Source: Candidatus Micrarchaeota archaeon (GTDB lineage Archaea; Micrarchaeota; Micrarchaeia; Micrarchaeales; CABMGC01). Taken from it: 61,019 nt of DNA. The stretch covers positions 1 through 61,019 of the forward strand of contig JAJYYF010000007.1 of NCBI GenBank assembly GCA_021801225.1, in the 5' to 3' direction. Position numbers and translations under genes: made by a program. Below, piece after piece: positions 8,732-48,035 of the stretch. Within the stretch, counting starts at the first letter, position 1. Every line of letters starts with the position of its first letter. The notes below the pieces were generated by a model. The model saw nothing but the letters and a program-made list of their open reading frames with translations. It did not search any database and had not been told where the DNA came from.

Positions 8732-9529
8732 ATGATGGATATCGTACCATTAATTTTACAGACACAGCCTATATTAAATACATTAGCTGCTAACTCAACA
8801 ACTTATTTAAATGCAGCTACAATTTATACTGAAAATACAATAACAGTATTACTTACATTATTAACTATATTAGCATTATCAATACAGGTAGCTAGAGGTT
8901 ACTTTTTAAGAGTGTTAAAAAAATTTACATTGAGAGTAGCTGCAGATGTATGGTGGCTCATTTATGTAATACTGCGTGATGCAAGTATCTTCCTAATAGT
9001 TTTCTTTGGATTTATGCTTTTTTATCCAGGAATTTTCCAAGATTTTCCAATAGCAGTGCCATTTATGCCTCTTGCAATAGATATCTTTGCAATAGCATTA
9101 GTAGTAATGCTCGTAAAGGATACTGATGAGGATATAAAGTATAACAATATACTAACGATACTCATAGCTATTGGAACATTTATGTATATTTTTGGGACCA
9201 TATTTGTTACAGAAAGCGCTACACAGCTTGCAAAACTTCCACCTACAGTCTCAAACTCACCAACAAATATTTGGGGTTTTACGAACTTATATTTTAACTC
9301 TATTAATAATCCTGCATTATCAATATACAGCTTCTATGTAGGAATAGCAATATTAGTGATTGCAGGTTTAGTTGCATTGAAATATGGATTACAGTTCGGA
9401 GTTCCAAGAAGTTCAGTAATAACAAATCCAAATCCAATAATAAAAACAACACAACAACCACAAACACAAGATAAGAAACAAACAACCGATACAGATGCAA
9501 CAAAGACAGGACCTAAACAAAACACGTGA
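8732..9529 (+). CDS. Multi-pass membrane protein of unknown function
   Basis: Several hydrophobic segments; 6 nt upstream of the ferredoxin gene. Confidence 0.8.
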   Translation: MMDIVPLILQTQPILNTLAANSTTYLNAATIYTENTITVLLTLLTILALSIQVARGYFLRVLKKFTLRVAADVWWLIYVILRDASIFLIVFFGFMLFYPGIFQDFPIAVPFMPLAIDIFAIALVVMLVKDTDEDIKYNNILTILIAIGTFMYIFGTIFVTESATQLAKLPPTVSNSPTNIWGFTNLYFNSINNPALSIYSFYVGIAILVIAGLVALKYGLQFGVPRSSVITNPNPIIKTTQQPQTQDKKQTTDTDATKTGPKQNT

Positions 9530-9535
9530 TATAAA

Positions 9536-9967
9536 ATGCCGTTCAAATATACATTTGATAATAATGTTTGTATACAATGTGGAATTTGTGGAGACGTTTG
9601 TCCGGTCAATGCAATTGATTTTACTAGAGCAGTACATAAAAATCCAGAAGACAGTAAAAATTCTTCAGATAATAAAGAGGATATGACAGAGTTTCCTATA
9701 CAGGTAGATAAATGTATAGGATGCATGATCTGTCCAGAGGAATGCCCAGTTTCTTGCATTACAATATTAAAAACAGATAAAGAACCTGTTTATGCGGAAA
9801 AACAAGGCTCTATGTTAACAGAAGAGCCTACAAAGGACGAGTTTAGTTTGTCTAAATATACAAAGGTAAGGCCGACAAGAATTAAGACTAAGGATCCATG
9901 GGGTAAGGTTTATATTTACAAACCTAGAAGAAGAAAATCGCAAACTGGAACATGGGAAAATATGTAA
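9536..9967 (+). CDS. 2x[4Fe-4S] ferredoxin with C-terminal extension
   Basis: CIQCGICGDVCP and CIGCMICPEECP. Confidence 0.92.
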   Translation: MPFKYTFDNNVCIQCGICGDVCPVNAIDFTRAVHKNPEDSKNSSDNKEDMTEFPIQVDKCIGCMICPEECPVSCITILKTDKEPVYAEKQGSMLTEEPTKDEFSLSKYTKVRPTRIKTKDPWGKVYIYKPRRRKSQTGTWENM

Positions 9968-11232: not shown

Positions 11233-11332
11233 GCTATCACTAGATATTGTAAAATATAAGTTAAATTATTATTCTATCCTATTTATATATTTTGTTATAC
11301 ATATATATTGTCATAAATTTTCAAGTGATAGA

Positions 11333-11521
11333 ATGCTTTGCGAAAGATGTGGTAAAGAGATACATAAAAATGTTAGTTGTGGCTACTGCAACAAGAAAAT
11401 TTGTTATAGTTGTCTTAAAAGCTCAAAAAGAGTTACAAAAGTAGAAAAAGCGTTTATATGTAAAGACTGCTGGAGCAATATGAAAAAAAGAAAGAAGTAC
11501 AAATCATTAATAGGAGAGTAA
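11333..11521 (+). CDS. Small Cys-rich zinc-finger protein (62 aa)
   Basis: ATG 11333 follows AGTGAT; four CxxC pairs (CERC, CGYC, CYSC, CKDC). Confidence 0.8.
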   Translation: MLCERCGKEIHKNVSCGYCNKKICYSCLKSSKRVTKVEKAFICKDCWSNMKKRKKYKSLIGE

Positions 11522-12507: not shown

Positions 12508-15500
12508 TTATAGAGTTTTTATTTGAATAACTAGTTTTTCTCCTTCTATTTCAAATTCTTTGATTTGTAAGTTTTCATTTGATAGTTCTTTGTACATTTT
12601 TTTAGCGTTTACATAATTCATTATCTCATTTTCAAATAAATCAATTGCTTCCCTTAATTCGCCAGATGCTGAGTAAAATAACTCAATTTTATCTTGTTTT
12701 TTAAGTGAGTTTTCTTTCCTTAAGAGTTGTACTCTTCTTTCAAATTCTCTAACTAATGCTTCATACTTAAGTTTTTGATCTATATGTGAATCTATATAAA
12801 TAAAACCATATTTAAATTTTACACCGTTTTCAGCAGTTAACTTTTCTATTACTGTGAAGTGTGTTTCATTAATTTGAACTGGACCCTTTTCTGTATGTAG
12901 TATGTAATAACCAACAGCGGATAACTCTTTTCTTATTTTATTATAATCTTCAGTCTTTAATGCTTCAGATACTGAAGTACTTTTATCTTTAAACTCTGGC
13001 CCTATTTTTGAGAAATTAGGTTTTATTTCTATTGAAACTGACTCTACTTTTTTTAGCGTAATCTCTTTTACGTTTGTATAATCACAAATTAGTCCATTAA
13101 ATTTTGCAATGATGCTCTCTAATTCAGGATATGTAGTTTCTATTGTAACTTTAGATACAGGCCATCTTAATTTTATTCCAGATTGTTCCCTACTGTTAAG
13201 AACACCGGTTATTATCTCATCGACAATTGAAAAATCTTTTTCTAAATCTAAATTAATAAAATCTTTAGGAAGTTTTGGCCATGTATTTAAGAATATGCTT
13301 TCTTTATCGCCACACATTTTTTTGTTTACTTCTAGATATAAATACTCTGAAGAAAAAGGAGTAAATGGAGATATCATTACATTTAAATTGTATAAAATAT
13401 AATTCATTAAATCCACATAGTATTTTGCTTTGCTCTTTTCAGCAAAAAGTATCTTCTTTTTGAATATTTTTAGATAGAATCTACTCAAATCATTTAATAA
13501 AAAGTTGCTAATCGAGTTATTTGCAATTTGAATTTTATAATTAGTTAAAGCTTCTGTTACAACCTGCAAAGTAGATGAAAATCTTGAAAGGATCCATAAA
13601 TCCTCAATATCTTTAATTTTTTTAATGTTTGGTTTTTTAATTTTAGTAGGGATATATCTTGTTAAAGATGTGTACTCATTGAATAGATTAAACATATTAT
13701 ATAATGTGCCTATTTTCTTTTCAGATTCTTTCATTTCATCTTTTTTAAATTGTAAGTCTAACCACTGTGTATGACTAGAACACCATAATCTATAACCATC
13801 TGCAGATGTTATTTTTAAAAGTTCTTCTAATGAAATGTAGTTTCCTAAACTTTTGTGCATCTCTCTTCCATCATCTGATAAAAGCATCCCATCAATCACT
13901 ACATTTTTAAATGGTGCTTTTCCATAAAGCATAACGCTTATTTTCAAAAGTGTTGAAAACCAACCACGCAGTTGATCTTTGCCCTCGAGTATAAAATCTG
14001 CTGGAAATAGTTTGTCAAACTCTTCTTGTGAAAGGCTTGCTTTGAAAGCTATTCCAGAATCATACCAAACATCAAAAACGTCACTTATTCTTGAAGCTTC
14101 GTCGCCGCATTTTTCACATTTGATTTTTATTTGATCTATGAATGGCTTATGTAGATTTGTGATTGCATTTGCTTTTTCCTTGTCTATTGAGTTTGAGACT
14201 AACTCCTCTTTTGAGCCTATAATTTTATCAGTGTTGCAAGAGGAACAATGCCAAATTGGAATAGGTATCCCCCAGTATCTTTGACGAGTTATACTCCAAT
14301 CTGGAGAGTTTGTTAAAACATCTTCCATCCAGGATTTCGCTTCTTCTGGATGCCATAGTACCTTCTTATTTTCAGCTATTAATTTATTTTTAATTTTTTG
14401 AATATTAAAAAACCATTGCTTTGTGACTAAAAAGAGAAGTTTTTCTTTACATCTCCAGCAATGTGGATAACTATGTTTTACCTTGAAATTTCCAAAAAGA
14501 ACATTAATTGATTTAAGATCATCGATTATTTTTAGATTTGCTTGCTCAGGCACTTTTAGATTAACATAAGAGCCTGAATCGTTGTTATAATTACCAGATA
14601 GATCAATTGGCGAGAATATAGGTAGATTATTTTTCAACCCTATTTGATAATCCTCTAGTCCATGACCAGGAGCTATATGTACAATTCCACTACCTTCTTG
14701 AGAAGAAACAAGTGTTTCTGCAGAAACTACTTTATGGACATTTCTTAATTCCTTTTGTTTTGGTATTTTATTTTCAAGAGGATTTATGTAAAAAAGGCCT
14801 TCTAATTCACTTCCGTAAAACTCTGCTTCTATTATGAAGTTATCTTTTGAGATTTCGGATAAGTATTCTAAACGGGATTTCATAAAAATAAGGGATTTGT
14901 TATTCATTTTTACCTTTACGTACAACTCTTTTGGATTTATCGCTATAGCTATATTAGAGGGTAATGTCCAAGGTGTTGTTGTCCAAATTAAGAAGTATGT
15001 ATTTTCAGATACCTCTATTTTAGGTTTTGACAACTCTTTGTTAATTTTAAACTCTACAAAAATTGAGTTGTCAGTTTCATCTGAGTACTCTACCTCTAAG
15101 GTCCCCTGGGCAAGAACAGTTCCGCAATGAGTACAATAAAGCATAGGCTTAACTCCAGAATAAAGTAAACCTTTTTCATTAATTTTCTTAAGTATATCCC
15201 ATGCAGATTCTATGAAAGAATTTTCATATGCCAGATAAGGTTTTTCAAAATCGAGAGATGCTCCAAATCTAATAAAATCTTTTGTCATTGAAGGAATTAA
15301 TGAAGTCACATATTCTTTACAGTAATTTGTAAAGTTCTCAACACCTATCTTAATCTCTATATCTTTTTTTGAAGTTAGTTCCAGAGTTTTTTCTACTTTA
15401 TTCTCAATAGGAAGACCATGTACATCATAACCTGCTTTATCATGGACATCGAAGCCCTGTAATCTACGGAATCGTATATAAATATCTTTAATTGATTTAA

Positions 15501-15660
15501 CCCAAATTTGACCAGGATGTAAATACCCACTTGAGTAAGGAGGCCCATCTAAAAAGAAAAATGTTTTATTGCCTTTATTCAAAGCCCTTGTTTTTTGTAG
15601 GATATCCATTTCCTTCCAATATTGAAGTATCTGTTCTTCGTTTTTTATGAAATTGAACAT
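12508..15660 (-). CDS. ileS: Isoleucyl-tRNA synthetase (archaeal/IleRS2 type)
   Basis: DGPPY, WTTTPWTLPSN, HSYPHCWRC, SITRQRYWG and EGKDQLRGWF. Confidence 0.97.
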   Translation of the reverse strand: MFNFIKNEEQILQYWKEMDILQKTRALNKGNKTFFFLDGPPYSSGYLHPGQIWVKSIKDIYIRFRRLQGFDVHDKAGYDVHGLPIENKVEKTLELTSKKDIEIKIGVENFTNYCKEYVTSLIPSMTKDFIRFGASLDFEKPYLAYENSFIESAWDILKKINEKGLLYSGVKPMLYCTHCGTVLAQGTLEVEYSDETDNSIFVEFKINKELSKPKIEVSENTYFLIWTTTPWTLPSNIAIAINPKELYVKVKMNNKSLIFMKSRLEYLSEISKDNFIIEAEFYGSELEGLFYINPLENKIPKQKELRNVHKVVSAETLVSSQEGSGIVHIAPGHGLEDYQIGLKNNLPIFSPIDLSGNYNNDSGSYVNLKVPEQANLKIIDDLKSINVLFGNFKVKHSYPHCWRCKEKLLFLVTKQWFFNIQKIKNKLIAENKKVLWHPEEAKSWMEDVLTNSPDWSITRQRYWGIPIPIWHCSSCNTDKIIGSKEELVSNSIDKEKANAITNLHKPFIDQIKIKCEKCGDEASRISDVFDVWYDSGIAFKASLSQEEFDKLFPADFILEGKDQLRGWFSTLLKISVMLYGKAPFKNVVIDGMLLSDDGREMHKSLGNYISLEELLKITSADGYRLWCSSHTQWLDLQFKKDEMKESEKKIGTLYNMFNLFNEYTSLTRYIPTKIKKPNIKKIKDIEDLWILSRFSSTLQVVTEALTNYKIQIANNSISNFLLNDLSRFYLKIFKKKILFAEKSKAKYYVDLMNYILYNLNVMISPFTPFSSEYLYLEVNKKMCGDKESIFLNTWPKLPKDFINLDLEKDFSIVDEIITGVLNSREQSGIKLRWPVSKVTIETTYPELESIIAKFNGLICDYTNVKEITLKKVESVSIEIKPNFSKIGPEFKDKSTSVSEALKTEDYNKIRKELSAVGYYILHTEKGPVQINETHFTVIEKLTAENGVKFKYGFIYIDSHIDQKLKYEALVREFERRVQLLRKENSLKKQDKIELFYSASGELREAIDLFENEIMNYVNAKKMYKELSNENLQIKEFEIEGEKLVIQIKTL

Positions 15661-15747
15661 TGAATCTCCACTTTAATGTTTTAGAATATATCAATTAAAC
15701 TTATTAAACCTTTTCAACTAAACATTATTGTAAAATATTGTGTATTT

Positions 15748-16386
15748 ATGAGAAAAGCTGATCTTGCCACAATTTTAAGAGTATTACTCGTATTTTTAGT
15801 AGCATATTTAGTTATATTAAAAATAAATCCTATATACTCCATATTAATATTGATAATAGCTTTCTTATTAGATGGTGTTGATGGATATCTTGCAATAAGG
15901 GAAGCTAGCTCTAATAAAATATCTTTCTTGATGTATATAAAAACGGTTAAAGGAGATTCAAAATATAGAAAAGAAATAAAGGAATTAAAGGAAAGCATAT
16001 CTAAAAAATATCCACATGGTCCAAGAATGGATGTTGCCGGAGATAGAGCAGTAGAGTATGCTCTTTGGGCCGTCTTTACATATTTAAATATATTGCCTTT
16101 GTTTATAATTTTAATAGTTATATTTAGGCACTCTTTTGTAGATGGATTAATGGCTGCAAAAGGAACATCAAATAAAATGAAGAGTAAGCTAGCAAAGATT
16201 ATTTACTCTTCAAATATAAGTAGAGGTGGAGTGAATGTTGTCAAGTTCGTAACATTTTCTTATTTGATTTTAGTTTATACATCAAAGTTTCCTATAATTT
16301 ATGGTTACATTTTAACAGGAATTCTCCTTTTATATATAATTTTAAGAGGAGTTGCTGAAGTTTATGAGGTATTTCAGAATGAATAG
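15748..16386 (+). CDS. CDP-alcohol phosphatidyltransferase family protein
   Basis: LDGVDGYLAIR...GPRMDVAGDR signature; TM helices. Confidence 0.85.
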   Translation: MRKADLATILRVLLVFLVAYLVILKINPIYSILILIIAFLLDGVDGYLAIREASSNKISFLMYIKTVKGDSKYRKEIKELKESISKKYPHGPRMDVAGDRAVEYALWAVFTYLNILPLFIILIVIFRHSFVDGLMAAKGTSNKMKSKLAKIIYSSNISRGGVNVVKFVTFSYLILVYTSKFPIIYGYILTGILLLYIILRGVAEVYEVFQNE

Positions 16387-42846: not shown

Positions 42847-42919
42847 AATAGCTAGGTTTTAGATCTTTATTTTTCCTTTCCAATTTTTGATATCTTTACT
42901 TGATCTCAATGAATTACTT

Positions 42920-44311
42920 TTAATGGAGCAGTATAAACGGTGCTATTCCTAAAAGTATAGTGAAGAATAATAAGAAAATCTCTGAGTAAAATACTGAGTT
43001 TATTACATAGCCATTAGGAGTTGCTCTTCCATTCAAGAATACGCGTTCTATTACCCAAAACATTACACTTCCTAGAAGTATTATACTAATTAAGGGAATT
43101 AAACCGAACAAACCAAATGAGGTAAATGCGGCACCGAATATTAAAATATCTGCTATGAATCCTACAGTAAGAGGTATTCCTACTGTTGCAAAGACCCCAG
43201 CTATAAATAAATAAGCTAGGGAGGAATAATCCTTCATTATACCCTTCAATACAGATAAATCTAATGAACCATAAATCTCCTTTAAGGTGCCTGCTAGTAA
43301 GAATAACATACATATTGAGATTGCATGGCCTAACATTCCATATAAGGCTCCATTAATTCCTATACTAGAACCAGAGGCTATCCCTAGTGATATTATTGCC
43401 ATATCTGTTATGCTGCTATAGGCTATAATTCTCTTTAAGTTTTTTTGTCTGATTGCGACCAAAACCGAGTATAAAGAAGAAAATATGAAGATACTAGCTA
43501 AATATAATGAATACTTGCTAAAGATAGGAAGCATTAGACTAGTTAATATTAAACCATAACCACCAAACTTTAGTAGTACACCTGCTAATATCATACTACC
43601 AGTTGTTGGAGCCTCTGTATGTGCATCAGGCAGCCAGTTGTGGAAAGGAAATATAGGTATTTTTATCATAAAAGAAAGTACAAGAAACAGAAGAACAAGT
43701 TCCTGTATAAAAATAGGTATAGTGTTCGAATAAGTTATTATCTGTGAAATTTGAAATGTATTAGGTGTAATGTTTGCGTATATGAGCAATATTGCTATAA
43801 GAAGAAAAAGGCTTGATATTAATGAGTAAATAATGAACTTTATTGATGCGTACTTCCTATTTGATGAGCCATATAAGTATATTATAAAGAACATTGAAAA
43901 CTCTGCAATTTCCCAGAAGACATATAGCAACAATAAATTAGATGATAAAAACAAAGCAATAGAGGATCCTTGTATTAATGCAAATAAAATACTATAAAGT
44001 CGTATGTTGTCTTTAATAAAATAGCCAATGCCTATAGAAGAAGCTGCAAAGACTATTGCTGACATCAACTCTAATATGAGAGTAGTTTGGGTGACTTGAA
44101 AACCTCCTGTGAAGCCTAAATAACTGAATGTAATTGGTTGAGTAAGTGATTGAATATTACTTGAAAAACTAAAAACCAGAAGTAATGATAGGATTAGTAC
44201 TATTATAGAGGATAACTGTTGAATAGTTTTTGATAATTTTTTTGGTAGAACTATTAGTAACAGTATTGAAAGAAATGGTATTGCAACTATAAAAAGCAGT
44301 AGTGGGAACAT
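42920..44311 (-). CDS. nuoM: Complex I subunit M, on the opposite strand
   Basis: KIPIFPFHNWLPDAHTEAPTTGSMILAGVLLKFGGYG; start refined to ATG 44311. Confidence 0.93.
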   Translation of the reverse strand: MFPLLLFIVAIPFLSILLLIVLPKKLSKTIQQLSSIIVLILSLLLVFSFSSNIQSLTQPITFSYLGFTGGFQVTQTTLILELMSAIVFAASSIGIGYFIKDNIRLYSILFALIQGSSIALFLSSNLLLLYVFWEIAEFSMFFIIYLYGSSNRKYASIKFIIYSLISSLFLLIAILLIYANITPNTFQISQIITYSNTIPIFIQELVLLFLVLSFMIKIPIFPFHNWLPDAHTEAPTTGSMILAGVLLKFGGYGLILTSLMLPIFSKYSLYLASIFIFSSLYSVLVAIRQKNLKRIIAYSSITDMAIISLGIASGSSIGINGALYGMLGHAISICMLFLLAGTLKEIYGSLDLSVLKGIMKDYSSLAYLFIAGVFATVGIPLTVGFIADILIFGAAFTSFGLFGLIPLISIILLGSVMFWVIERVFLNGRATPNGYVINSVFYSEIFLLFFTILLGIAPFILLH

Positions 44312-44440: not shown

Positions 44441-45166
44441 ATGATTGGAAAAAATATTGCTGCGAAGATAGAATCTAATAAAAATTATAGCAAAAGTAAT
44501 GTTAAACAGCTTATTGCATTAAGTCCAAACGATAATGAGTTAGTTAGTATTGAAGACACAGTATATAGGATTTTTAATAAAAATAGGATAGAAAATAATG
44601 GAGTTACAAGATTAAGGAGAGATTTGGTTTTAGGTGAGGAAGGCAGTACATTGACTGTTGTTTTATGGGATAAAAGTTGTGAATTAGTTGATACACTTCT
44701 TGTACAAAGAGGTGATAAAGTTTTAATAAGCAATCTTAAGGTTAGAACTATTCAGGACTCAATAGAACTAATTAATACAGCAGGAACTTATATCTCAAGA
44801 GTTATTCCAACAGAGATTGATGTTAAAACTGATTTTTCAAGTTTAAATGGAAATGAAAAAAATATAGATATATTAGGAAGGATACTTTCAGTAAGTCCAA
44901 TTAGATACTTTAAAGATTTAGATGGAAAACAAAATGGTATATCCGAATGCACCATAAGTGATGGTTTTGTTGAAGGAAGAGTTACATTATGGAAATCTTC
45001 GAGTGGTTATGCAAATGAAATGCACCCTGGTTCATATATTAAAATAGAATACTGTTCAATTAAAAAGATAGAAGATAAGTTAGATATAACTGCAAATGAT
45101 TACTCAAGAATTTTGTTAGGCCAGGGGCTTACACCAAAAACAAATAGAAAAAATATTAAAAAATAA
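44441..45166 (+). CDS. RPA/SSB-like protein with two OB folds
   Basis: Two repeats: LGEEGSTLTVVLWD...GDKVLI and ISDGFVEGRVTLWK...GSYIKI. Confidence 0.82.
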   Translation: MIGKNIAAKIESNKNYSKSNVKQLIALSPNDNELVSIEDTVYRIFNKNRIENNGVTRLRRDLVLGEEGSTLTVVLWDKSCELVDTLLVQRGDKVLISNLKVRTIQDSIELINTAGTYISRVIPTEIDVKTDFSSLNGNEKNIDILGRILSVSPIRYFKDLDGKQNGISECTISDGFVEGRVTLWKSSSGYANEMHPGSYIKIEYCSIKKIEDKLDITANDYSRILLGQGLTPKTNRKNIKK

Positions 45167-45190
45167 TATTAAAATAAACAAACAGTATAG

Positions 45191-45203
45191 AAAGCTTTAT
45201 AAA
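45191..45203 (+). promoter_or_regulatory. BRE/TATA promoter aimed at about 45225
   Basis: AAAGC-TTTATAAA; archaeal spacing puts the start at the base of the downstream stem, and no + strand ORF follows. Confidence 0.55.
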
Positions 45204-45224
45204 TACTAATTTATAAGTTGTATA

Positions 45225-45325
45225 GTTTTCTGGGGGACAGGTTGAGAACTTATTTTTATCCCACCCAAATCCCAAAATCTTTTCTCTAAGTTATGCAGTA
45301 TGCATAACTCCACCCCCAGAAAAAC
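45225..45325 (+). ncRNA. Candidate structured small RNA (three-way junction), family unknown
   Basis: 11-bp closing stem 45226-45236/45313-45323, 9-bp hairpin 45289-45309, and a 5-bp stem enclosing a G-free loop. Confidence 0.55.
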
Positions 45326-45329
45326 ATAA

Positions 45330-46079
45330 TTAGAATACTTTCTTAAGATTTGGTTTTGTTTTTAAATTTGGTTTTATACCAGCATTAGTTATTTTTACAG
45401 GATATCCATTTCCAACTGCTTCTTTTATAATTTTAGAGTCATGTTCTTCTTGGAAAGTATTATTTGTATTTGACATTATTGTAAAGTTTCTAATTCCTAA
45501 AGCGGATCCTGCTAACTGAACATCACAAGTAGAACTTGAAACATTATTTCTTTGTGATACGTATGTTGAGTTTAAAGGCAAGCCTAGTTTATCACATAGA
45601 GTAGAGTATTTTTCAGTAGAAGGTTGCAGTAGCAACATATGTTTTTCACCAGTTACAACAGTATTTGTTTTTGCTAATTCAGTAGATATTTTCAACTCAG
45701 GATACCTTGTTTTTAAGAAAGTCGTGCCTAATTTTTGAAGTAGCTCAATTATATCTTGCGAAGAGTTAAAAAGTTTTATATCTTGAATATTTGATCTTAT
45801 TGTGGAGACAAGACCATCCTCTATTTCTGTTGTTGAGCTTTCTCCCTTTGTAAGTAAGGAGTAAGTAAATTTACAAGCGCCACAGTCAGTATGTGGTATG
45901 AATATTATCTGTTTTATAGGATAATTAGAGATAACCTCATCAAGTGTTGGAATAGCGCCGTAGGGATTACCTGCAGCATTCCTTATAAATATGCTTTTTC
46001 CATCGTTTAATGAATCAGCTATTACATTCATTCGTGCATCCATACACATTAGAAATAATTTATTTGGTTGGGTTTCCAT
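45330..46079 (-). CDS. Beta-carbonic anhydrase-like protein with extra C-terminal region
   Basis: CMDAR, IRNAAG and HTDCGAC zinc ligands. Confidence 0.82.
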   Translation of the reverse strand: METQPNKLFLMCMDARMNVIADSLNDGKSIFIRNAAGNPYGAIPTLDEVISNYPIKQIIFIPHTDCGACKFTYSLLTKGESSTTEIEDGLVSTIRSNIQDIKLFNSSQDIIELLQKLGTTFLKTRYPELKISTELAKTNTVVTGEKHMLLLQPSTEKYSTLCDKLGLPLNSTYVSQRNNVSSSTCDVQLAGSALGIRNFTIMSNTNNTFQEEHDSKIIKEAVGNGYPVKITNAGIKPNLKTKPNLKKVF

Positions 46080-46259: not shown

Positions 46260-48035
46260 TTATTTGTTTATAGATATCCCAAAGTCATCCTTTAGTCTTT
46301 TGCTATTTATCTTTGTAGGTGAACCATCAATTAGAGACTCAAATTTTTTATTCTTAGGAAATAGTATAAAATCACGTATATTTTCTGAATTTGATAATAA
46401 AGCAACAAGTCTATCAAGGCCTAATGCTATTCCCCCATGTATTGGTGCGCCATACTCAAGAGCCTCTATTAAGAATCCAAATGTTTCATCTATTGTTTTA
46501 TCTGACATGCCCATCATTTTTAAACTGTTTCTCTGAACAACAGGATCAATTATTCTAATAGAACCACTAGCTATCTCAACACCATTTAAAACTAAATCAT
46601 ATTGACGTGCAACTGCTTTTTCTGGAGCTGTGTCCAAGTACTTAAGTGTTTCTTCTTTTGGAGCTGAGAAAGGATTATGTGCAGGTTTTAATTTACCGGT
46701 TACCTCGTCTTTTTCAAACATTGGGAACTCGTCAATCCATAGAAAGTTATACTCATCAGAATATTTACCTATTTTATCTCCTAATATTTTCCTTATTTTG
46801 CCCATTGCATTTAAAAGAAGTTTTTCTGATACATCAGAGAATATTAAGATTATATCTCCTTCTTTTGCATTTAACTTTTCTTTTATTTTTTCTGCAATAC
46901 TTCCAAAAGATATAACTATGCTTTCAGGTTCTGATGACAACTTATTTGAAGCTACAAAGAGCCATGTCATACCACCTAGGCCCAACTCTTTTGCAACTTC
47001 TATCAATTTTAACATGTAATTTTTATCTACTTTTGATTTTTCGGAGTTGAAATCGGCATTAAAAACCATTGCCTTTACCTTTCCATTCATTGATATTACT
47101 CGTTTTAACATATTATAATTACTAAGTTTAACTTCTTCAGTTATATCAATTATTTTCGAATCAAATCTTAAATCTGGTTTATCTGAACCATATTGTTCAA
47201 CAGCATCTTTATACAACATATGTCTGAAGTTTGCTTTGATTTTTTTATTTAGTACTTCATTGAAAACGGTGACAAATAAATCTTCAATTAAAGATTGAAT
47301 ATACTTTTCATCTTTGAATGACAACTCAAGGTCTATTTGTGTGAACTCTGGTTGCCTGTCTTCCCTAGGATCTTCATCTCTATAACAACGTGCTACTTGA
47401 AAATATCTTTCTAAACCAGATACCATACATAATTGTTTGTAAATTTGTGGAGATTGAGGTAATGAGTAAAATGTTTCAGGATTTGTCCTTGAAGGTACCA
47501 AGAATGTTCTAGAACCAGTTTCATAAGTGTCTTTAACTAGTGTAGGAGTTTCTAGTTCCAAAAAATCACGAGACCATAAAAATTTTCGTATAGATTTAGT
47601 CAATTTATCTCTAAACTCAATATTTTTTATCATGTCTCTTCTTCTTAAATCTAAGTATCTGTATTTTAAACGTAATTCTTCATTAGCTAAGAATTTTTTC
47701 TTTTCATCTATCAACTCGAAAGGAGGAACCTTTGATTTGTTCAGTATAACCAATGATGTTACAAAAAGCTCTATTTTTCCAGTAGAACTATCTTTATCTA
47801 TCGTGTCTTGATCTCTTAAACGTATTTTGCCTTTTACGTGTAAAACATACTCTTTACCTATATTTGATGCTTTTTCAAGTATCTCTCCTTCAAATACAAG
47901 TTGTATATAGCCATGCCTATCTGCAAGATCTATGAATAATTTGCCTCCATGATCACGAATATATCTTGCCCAACCATAAAGTGATACTTCTTTGTTTACA
48001 TCTTTTTCATTAAATGAACCGCAGTTTAACTCCAT
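46260..48035 (-). CDS. aspS: Aspartyl-tRNA synthetase, bacterial type, probably non-discriminating
   Basis: 591 aa; RDHGG, FLVPSR, LPQSPQ, DRQPEFTQ, YGSDKPDLRF, a GAD-like insert and GAPIHGG. Confidence 0.95.
   Translation of the reverse strand: MELNCGSFNEKDVNKEVSLYGWARYIRDHGGKLFIDLADRHGYIQLVFEGEILEKASNIGKEYVLHVKGKIRLRDQDTIDKDSSTGKIELFVTSLVILNKSKVPPFELIDEKKKFLANEELRLKYRYLDLRRRDMIKNIEFRDKLTKSIRKFLWSRDFLELETPTLVKDTYETGSRTFLVPSRTNPETFYSLPQSPQIYKQLCMVSGLERYFQVARCYRDEDPREDRQPEFTQIDLELSFKDEKYIQSLIEDLFVTVFNEVLNKKIKANFRHMLYKDAVEQYGSDKPDLRFDSKIIDITEEVKLSNYNMLKRVISMNGKVKAMVFNADFNSEKSKVDKNYMLKLIEVAKELGLGGMTWLFVASNKLSSEPESIVISFGSIAEKIKEKLNAKEGDIILIFSDVSEKLLLNAMGKIRKILGDKIGKYSDEYNFLWIDEFPMFEKDEVTGKLKPAHNPFSAPKEETLKYLDTAPEKAVARQYDLVLNGVEIASGSIRIIDPVVQRNSLKMMGMSDKTIDETFGFLIEALEYGAPIHGGIALGLDRLVALLSNSENIRDFILFPKNKKFESLIDGSPTKINSKRLKDDFGISINK

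Follow-up and report, generated by a model that had tools for sequence, protein, structure and literature searches.

What is encoded between two convergent ORFs in a 61,019-nt stretch of Micrarchaeota DNA, where a promoter-like signal precedes a series of inverted repeats and a C-rich segment devoid of G? The original prediction placed here an independently promoted, structured non-coding RNA with a single-stranded loop. The whole stretch, referred to below as the window, belongs to a genome (G000) of 0.96 Mb in 31 contigs that is 90.8% complete, and the 16S rRNA fragment and 5S rRNA gene that Rfam detects in it mark it as archaeal. The parts of the element and its neighbours are as follows.

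44441–45166, plus strand: gene for an RPA-like protein with OB folds (241 aa), the upstream neighbour.
45191–45203, plus strand: BRE/TATA promoter (AAAGC followed by TTTATAAA), read from the sequence.
45225–45325, plus strand: predicted ncRNA of ~100 nt, a three-way junction of P1, P2 and P3, its 3´ end uncertain.
45226–45236, plus strand: 5´ arm of P1, the clamp helix, a perfect 11-bp complement of 45313–45323.
45244–45248, plus strand: 5´ arm of P2 (GAGAA), whose partner is 45282–45286 (TTCTC).
45249–45281, plus strand: 33-nt loop without any G, closed by P2.
45253–45257, plus strand: U-tract of the loop, 5´ of the C-rich core.
45258–45274, plus strand: C-rich loop core ATCCCACCCAAATCCCA, near-invariant across six genera.
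45282–45286, plus strand: 3´ arm of P2, from sequence and covariation.
45289–45309, plus strand: P3, a 9-bp hairpin with a GTA loop, read from the sequence.
45313–45323, plus strand: 3´ arm of P1, from sequence and covariation.
45330–46079, minus strand: gene for a beta-carbonic-anhydrase-like protein (249 aa), the convergent downstream neighbour.
45354–45363, plus strand: first long downstream T-run, TTTTGTTTTT, inside the convergent ORF.

The promoter, P1, P2 with its G-free 33-nt loop, and P3 were all found where they had been placed. From the TATA spacing, transcription is inferred to start near 45225, and the T-run at 45354–45363 is a possible archaeal termination site. The minimum free energy (MFE) of a 116-nt stretch is –30.1 kcal/mol (z = –3.73), a value that none of 200 dinucleotide shuffles equalled. 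P1 and P3 are present in the MFE and centroid structures alike. P2 is missing from the single-sequence MFE structure and is backed by comparison among homologues.

Is the element a gene, or one copy of a repeat? It is single-copy in G000, where the next-best match to it is a 28-nt AT-rich stretch with an E-value of 0.0115. The suggestion that it might be a miniature inverted-repeat element (MITE) or other dispersed repeat is therefore ruled out, as there is one full-length match in its own genome. Other carrier genomes also have one or two copies each; G002 has two. Related loci were found in three steps. BLAST against 60 relatives identified three genomes with a clear homologue, of which two belong to the genus of G000 and one to a different genus. 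A 19-nt loop motif, run with a tolerance of three mismatches against 247 genomes of the order, returned 41 places in 38 genomes. On inspection, 24 of these, in 23 genomes, combine a TATA box and a closing stem with a loop that contains the motif. The remaining 17 places were without that architecture and mostly within genes; those in the sister family and in genera g8, g12 and g24 had no promoter or stem and were mostly intragenic. A covariance model (R1) trained on 14 three-way-junction members matches 45227–45322 at 67.1 bits; it matched 16 of the 117 genomes of the family, adding two new carriers, and none of the 129 genomes of the sister family.

In total, 25 of 117 genomes, in 6 of the 30 genera of one Micrarchaeota family, carry the element (g1, 6 of 10 genomes; g5, 7 of 8; g43, 2 of 2; g44, 1 of 1; g26, 7 of 12; g13, 2 of 2), counts in which “not found” is not equivalent to “absent”, since many MAGs of the family are incomplete. 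The three-way junction is common to g1, g5, g43 and g44. The form in g26 has P1 and a longer P2 and lacks P3; that in g13 is a single 12-bp stem, likewise lacking P3. These two forms score weakly with the model (E 0.012–0.17 with filters off) and are probable homologues, assigned by promoter, stem and motif. Beyond the genomes of the order, a scan of metagenome contigs added three further copies, one apparently identical to a known copy, and viral contigs contained none. A degenerate-motif scan of genome contigs was swamped by chance bacterial matches and returned two copies identical to those of G100 and G013.

The stems are maintained by compensatory change. In an alignment of 17 sequences that was fitted to the model, and so is biased towards the structure, 94.9% of cells are standard-paired, against 55–72% when partners are slid by 1–3 columns. 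Changes on both sides are seen in 9 of 15 pairs (40 cells), and the observed covariation score was reached by none of 500 column shuffles. P1 is paired in 96.2% of cells and has double changes in two pairs, with arm sequences that vary among genera. P2 is paired in 100% of cells, with double changes from G-C to A-U and U-A as well as G·U variants. In P3, all five modelled pairs have compensatory changes; its sequences are unrelated between species, and the hairpin is kept wherever P3 is present. Thus, P1 and P3 of different genera are unrelated in sequence, yet still pair. G·U occurs at 7 of the 15 modelled pairs, frequently in P1 and P2, and would be an A·C mismatch on the other strand. These pairs fit the plus strand only, which argues for selection on a plus-strand RNA and not on a DNA palindrome.

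The promoter is similarly constrained. In 24 of the 26 copies examined, a TATA-like octamer starts 24–33 nt upstream of the 5´ end of P1, and most of these octamers have a BRE-like, purine-rich AAAG in front of them. The two exceptions have TTATATAC at about the same place. The 12 sequencing runs listed for the locus are all DNA-type metagenomes. Taken together, the conserved promoter, the covarying stems and the G·U pairs that fit one strand support the prediction of an independently promoted, structured non-coding RNA with a single-stranded loop, and comparative sequence analysis marks the locus as a genuine small RNA gene of a lineage-restricted new family.

The loop is the most constrained part of this RNA. 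Its core, AUCCCACCCAnAUCCC, which follows the U-tract, is near-invariant, and the flanking RPA-like protein is 28–40% identical between the same genomes. The general pattern is U3–7 and AU, then AU(U/C)CCCAC(C)(C)A(A/U/C)AUCC(C)(C)A, in which the single variable site of the core is A, U or C. The invariant columns form two C-blocks, CCCAC(C)(C) and AUCC(C). Across the family, the G-free loop spans 20–40 nt and is held open by P2, so that the RNA presents a conserved unpaired seed feature of two invariant C-blocks closed by a covarying helix. The motif can also be read as a peptide, (Y/I)-P-T-(Q/H)-I-P, with the variable sites at third codon positions. We discarded this coding reading for want of a conserved start or stop. 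No in-frame start precedes the motif in 8 of 23 members, in G001 a stop codon abuts its 5´ side, and downstream stops are found from +21 to +480 nt, giving unrelated C-terminal extensions. Judged by its sequence, the small RNA locus is not coding.

What, then, might such an RNA do? We tentatively favour, with somewhat less than even confidence, the reading that the gene specifies a trans-acting, RBS-masking sRNA of ~100 nt peculiar to one Micrarchaeota family. The two C-blocks would act as a split seed that pairs in antiparallel fashion with two G-blocks of short mRNA leaders, namely a 5´-terminal UGGGGA and a GGUGGG variant of the Shine-Dalgarno (SD) sequence situated 0–5 nt before the AUG. 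The U-tract would lengthen the duplex across the A-rich spacer and the start codon, and may in addition be bound by the Sm-like protein of G000. The ribosome-binding site would be masked as a result, altering translation or mRNA stability.

The choice of targets would follow from the sequence of the loop. The SD consensus in G000 is GGUGA at –9 to –5, which fits the 16S rRNA 3´ end of relatives (GAUCACCUC). The loop is complementary to GGUGGG, not to this consensus, so that it would single out a small number of unusual start regions and not many. In a duplex scan of the genome on both strands (12,874 scan windows; mean –7.9, sd 3.3 kcal/mol), the best duplexes besides the gene's own antisense, at –26.5 and –24.8 kcal/mol, each span the SD and the AUG in one of the two copies of an orphan gene. 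Values of –20 kcal/mol or lower were found in 3 of 789 crude start regions and in no intragenic control window; these three are the candidate targets in G000:

C7, 9049–9519: 157-aa orphan gene, copy 1.
C20, 15122–15586, minus strand: 157-aa orphan gene, copy 2.
C25 of G000, 46826–47665, minus strand: gene for a 280-aa hypothetical protein.

The prediction that the loop pairs with GGUG-type SD motifs thus stands in part. A few start regions fit, with a preference for the GGUGGG type, but a general enrichment over shuffled loops was not observed. Compared with 40 shuffled loops, start regions were not enriched for pairing overall: the counts at thresholds from –12 to –20 kcal/mol were 54, 32, 10, 7 and 3, against shuffle means of 87.6, 39.9, 16.6, 6.2 and 2.0, and the best start-region energy (–26.7 kcal/mol) lies inside the range of the shuffle minima (–27.4 to –18.9). 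These figures give no grounds for a global anti-SD role; the rare G-rich leaders in question would be picked up by any C-rich loop.

The two orphan gene copies are one duplicated segment, and their leader carries both G-blocks, as does that of the 280-aa gene. As a target in relatives, the orphan gene was set aside: the only relative found, in G001, differs in its 5´ part and lacks the site. The 280-aa gene has orthologues in G007, G001 and G002 that are 32–50% identical at the protein level and keep both G-blocks. The four leaders are built alike, with a TATA box, ~27–30 nt, UGGGGA, a spacer of 7, 8, 12 or 23 nt, and GGUGGG 3–5 nt before the AUG. Predicted duplexes, computed with the G000 loop throughout, reach –21.4, –21.1, –22.4 and –19.7 kcal/mol, and the two G-blocks oppose the two invariant C-blocks in antiparallel order. 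By eye, the single substitution in the G001 loop, U to A on the 5´ side of the first C-block and next to it, lies opposite a U in the leader of that species and would extend the duplex. In seven orthologues of a control gene, whose start region scored –15.4 kcal/mol, the G-blocks are lost. Of the four upstream regions of the 280-aa gene and its orthologues, three broadly resemble one another and have a conserved promoter, and part of the conservation of the G-blocks may therefore be plain slow divergence; GGUGGG could also be kept simply as an SD. In G007, the RNA locus itself is interrupted by the end of a contig. No Pfam, PADLOC or Atlas lead was obtained for the 280-aa protein.

Pattern searches delimit the reach of these candidates. 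Within the genus, a search for both blocks with an ATG after them gave 14 hits, against one for the reversed control. Six of them are candidate-target start regions, namely the three in G000 and the 280-aa orthologues in G001, G002 and G007. The remaining eight are not target start regions, and one of two near-identical hits in G008 is the 3´ end of a TnpB-type ORF. Five further hits that were checked appear to be coding DNA with no evident promoter. The analogous pattern has one site in five g5 genomes, and a looser two-block pattern applied across the family gave counts like those of the reversed control. Start regions of neighbouring genes, including the carbonic-anhydrase-like gene, had no complementarity to the loop, and no target common to all carrier genera was found. 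All candidate targets belong to one subclade of g1, and the loop is conserved in six genera.

This mismatch is better explained by a second reading, in which the RNA binds a protein as a scaffold, decoy or RNP component. The U-tract and C-blocks would form a platform for a KH, an OB-fold (RPA-like or cold-shock-like) or an Sm-like protein, with P1–P3 merely presenting it. A single-stranded sequence of ~17 nt is kept in six genera, and the searches revealed no conserved RNA partner for it, as would suit a site bound by protein. The U-tract resembles the oligo-U sites bound by archaeal Sm proteins, and G000 has an LSM-family (Sm-like) gene at C22, 747–944. The gene order is suggestive as well, as the RNA lies directly 3´ of the RPA-like gene in 13 genomes of g1 and g5. 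The RPA-like character of this neighbour, part of the original prediction, is substantiated by partial NCBIfam matches to replication factor A (best E 6.5e-16; all far under the curated cut-offs) and by matches to PDB replication factor A chains. The downstream protein matches Pfam Pro_CA at an E-value of 5.7e-5, under the cut-off.

Against this second reading, no computation points to a protein partner, and the gene order does not hold up. Both neighbours are syntenic with the RNA in g1 and g5, and for the RPA-like gene this is the case only there. In g43 and g44, the RNA and the RPA gene are on separate contigs; in g26 and g13, the RNA is flanked by genes other than RPA; and in six genera (g17, g2, g15, g8, g9 and g21), a convergent gene comes immediately after the RPA gene with no RNA between them. 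A search of genome contigs with the RPA-like protein yielded no related loci, and no single neighbour is common to all carrier genera. Adjacency to the RPA gene is thus a gene order common to two genera and not a functional signature, and the proposed tie between the RNA and the OB-fold protein is not sustained. We consider a protein-binding role less likely than RBS masking, yet the foremost of its rivals. One intriguing variant of it, which we regard as improbable, is that the loop could be the docking surface of a Micrarchaeota-specific RNP that loads or titrates a single-strand-binding protein (RPA-like, KH or Sm), or that the RNA could be a stable molecule that is transferred to the host cell, on which these ultra-small symbionts depend, or is perceived by it. 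If true, this would be a kind of archaeal RNP without a described counterpart.

The locus might alternatively be a structured terminator or insulator between convergent genes, with a loop that is incidental or acts at the DNA level. The inspected loci of all six genera have an opposite-strand gene following the element, the P1 arms of G000 have T4 runs on both strands, and members in g26 and g43 have a T-run within a few bases 3´ of P1. The T-runs of the P1 arms are not conserved, however, and the g5 arms are of a GGAGGAC type. Archaeal termination needs U-tracts only, and neither a three-way junction nor an invariant 17-nt loop. A pure bidirectional terminator, as had been considered, leaves the invariant loop and the dedicated promoter at its conserved, fixed distance unexplained. 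Moreover, the G·U pairs reveal selection on one RNA strand, and the genera mentioned above do without the element in the same RPA–convergent gene arrangement. A terminator function is accordingly very unlikely.

Finally, the RNA could belong to a known class of RNP as a guide or template (H/ACA, C/D, rRNA-processing chaperone, tRNA-like, Y-like or telomerase-like). Rfam 15 has no match at gathering thresholds at the locus in a search of the whole window, and none at E≤10 on either strand of 45100–45420. ARAGORN found no tRNA at the locus; the only tRNA genes of the window, for tRNA-Gly and tRNA-Glu, lie at other positions. Both results agree with the prediction that this is no tRNA and no Rfam family, and the RNA is outside every family catalogued in Rfam 15. 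The genes for SRP RNA and RNase P RNA lie elsewhere in G000. A likeness to SRP RNA was rejected, as its loop-like C-rich stretch falls mostly in helices 3 and 4 and the score of 27 compares with 22.7 ± 3.7 for shuffles.

The H/ACA case has one positive element. In G000, an ACA follows P1, and P1 together with four unpaired bases sets the base of P3 15 nt from this ACA, a spacing that resembles the H/ACA ruler. Beyond G000, an ACA follows P1 in one g5 member, and the other members have unrelated triplets at this position. By eye, the alignments contain no K-turn, no conserved GA·AG motifs and no pairs of C (RUGAUGA) and D (CUGA) boxes; CUGA is present in the P1 arms of some members, though not in G000 or g5. 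The rRNAs of G000 are incomplete, and complementarity was assessed with the complete 16S and 23S rRNAs of the carriers G001 and G034. Shuffled loops did as well or better in fractions of 0.24, 0.36, 0.70 and 0.48, and in fractions of 0.18–0.99 for 600-nt rRNA flanks from the same genomes. The CCCA-type repeats in the loop had invited the idea of a repeat template, as in telomerase; this was abandoned, since neither the 90.8%-complete genome nor the neighbouring ORFs of the window yielded an RVT_1 reverse transcriptase. A Y RNA was rejected likewise, there being no TROVE gene in G000 and no match to the Rfam Y_RNA family. Assignment to a known RNP class is largely refuted, and we regard it as extremely unlikely.

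The reading as an RBS-masking sRNA is the one that we carry forward, and its proposed mechanism is plausible. The carriers are organisms that have shed most regulation, and they retain a loop that is better conserved than the neighbouring proteins. A single-copy, promoter-driven RNA kept across six genera with genomes below 1 Mb implies a function worth its cost. To our knowledge, the regulatory RNAs of DPANN archaea are essentially uncharted. In the open literature, screened by title and abstract, we found nothing on small RNAs in Micrarchaeota; supplements could hold transcript lists. If the split C-block seed masks GGUGGG sites, the RNA and its candidate mRNAs would make a defined and testable sRNA–target pair in a DPANN lineage. 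If the loop binds a protein instead, it would mark a hitherto unknown RNP.

Several known systems invite comparison. Archaeal H/ACA sRNAs are of similar size and hairpin-type, with a long lower stem followed by an ACA, a feature shared by G000 alone. In the Micrarchaeota RNA, the ACA is not conserved, a K-turn is lacking, the “5´ pocket strand” would be 52 nt long, and there is no complementarity to rRNA. Bacterial sRNAs of the RsaE/RoxS type have G-poor loops with CCC motifs, a seed conserved far above the rest of the molecule, and rho-independent terminators, and they are thought to pair with the G-rich SD regions of several mRNAs. The C-rich, G-poor loop and the best-conserved seed are alike in the two cases. 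The RsaE/RoxS type did not match in Rfam, and the Micrarchaeota loop differs in fitting GGUGGG and not the consensus SD of its host, GGUGA.

Closest in proposed function are sRNA154 (through its loop 2) and sRNA41 of Methanosarcina mazei, which, as set out in the review PMC5867862, are independently transcribed and use an unpaired anti-RBS loop to mask the RBS of specific mRNAs and repress their translation. The Micrarchaeota RNA is without homology to either (no Rfam match at E≤10) and comes from another phylum (DPANN). In contrast to the M. mazei sRNAs, its targets are predicted only, and the putative anti-RBS element is a split, two-block C seed displayed on a three-way-junction scaffold.

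At the 3´ end of 16S rRNA, read from two relatives that carry homologues of the ~100-nt sRNA (G001, locus L188; G034, locus L190), the sequence is ...GAUCACCUC, and beyond this it departs from the usual CCUCC tail. In the source genome, G000, 16S rRNA is represented by its first ~330 positions only, at the start of the window, and the Shine-Dalgarno consensus obtained genome-wide from 637 well-defined starts is GGUGA at positions -9 to -5. The match to 23S rRNA is broken, and it is split at the same model positions in G000 and the related genome G005, ending at the contig end in the following two places:

G000, contig C22, 79270-81086: broken 23S rRNA match
G005, contig C9, 47566-49403: broken 23S rRNA match

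The pieces cover model positions 16-1422 and 1423-1783, followed by two pieces of 53 nt each (1822-1874 and 1893-1945), in both genomes. Either the 23S gene may be interrupted by an intron or insertion, or the assemblies may break systematically within it.

In G002, another carrier of the sRNA, the whole unit of RPA-like gene, sRNA and carbonic-anhydrase-like gene is found in two copies:

G002, contig C16, ~11264-11400: unit copy (extracted locus L009)
G002, contig C1, ~42890-43023: unit copy (extracted locus L028)

The RPA-like proteins of both copies are 58-59% identical to that of G000, and the two sRNA copies have identical loops and different P1 and P3 sequences. The doubling is either an old duplication or the presence of two strains in one bin, the contamination of this genome being listed as 5%. 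Elsewhere in G000, a hairpin located between genes has a stem of 10 bp and a G-rich loop (GGUGGGGAAGAU...):

G000, contig C28, ~177840-177890, + strand: hairpin with G-rich loop

This loop is partially complementary to the first C-block of the sRNA, and the hairpin could be a kissing-loop partner of the sRNA or a chance occurrence; it fell outside the top duplex scores.

A segment of at least 700 bp, comprising the orphan gene and its upstream region, is duplicated in G000:

G000, contig C7, ~9046-9800: duplicated orphan-gene segment
G000, contig C20, ~15119-15870: duplicated orphan-gene segment

The encoded proteins of 157 and 155 aa are 77% identical, and the final ~66 residues of the orphan protein are shared with a 177-aa protein of G001, the N-terminal part of which looks transposase-associated by eye. 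Among relatives, a ~28-nt element, GGGGAAGCCCAC...GGTGGG, that contains an internal hairpin is repeated on many contigs, frequently at their ends (G082, 11 places; G081, 4; G088 and G008, 2 each), for example:

Locus L316, 1501-1534: copy of the ~28-nt element

In G008, the one copy that was examined lies within a TnpB-like ORF, at its 3´ end; this ORF encodes both a RuvC motif and a zinc ribbon. It probably represents the omega-RNA or right-end region of a mobile element of the IS200/IS605 type, which has risen in copy number in these genomes.

ARAGORN, run on the whole of G000 without intron search, identified just 24 tRNA genes, none of them for Ala, Ile, Phe, Ser, Thr, Trp or Tyr; the missing genes may be intron-bearing, split or unassembled. 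Two further components were located:

G000, contig C9, 33061-33356: SRP RNA
Window, 46260-48035, - strand: aspartyl-tRNA synthetase

The SRP RNA scores 63.9 bits, below the Rfam gathering score of 96.5, and is thus a divergent archaeal SRP RNA that standard annotation would overlook. The synthetase (591 aa) contains a GAD insertion domain, an architecture that we take to be of the bacterial type and unusual in an archaeon.
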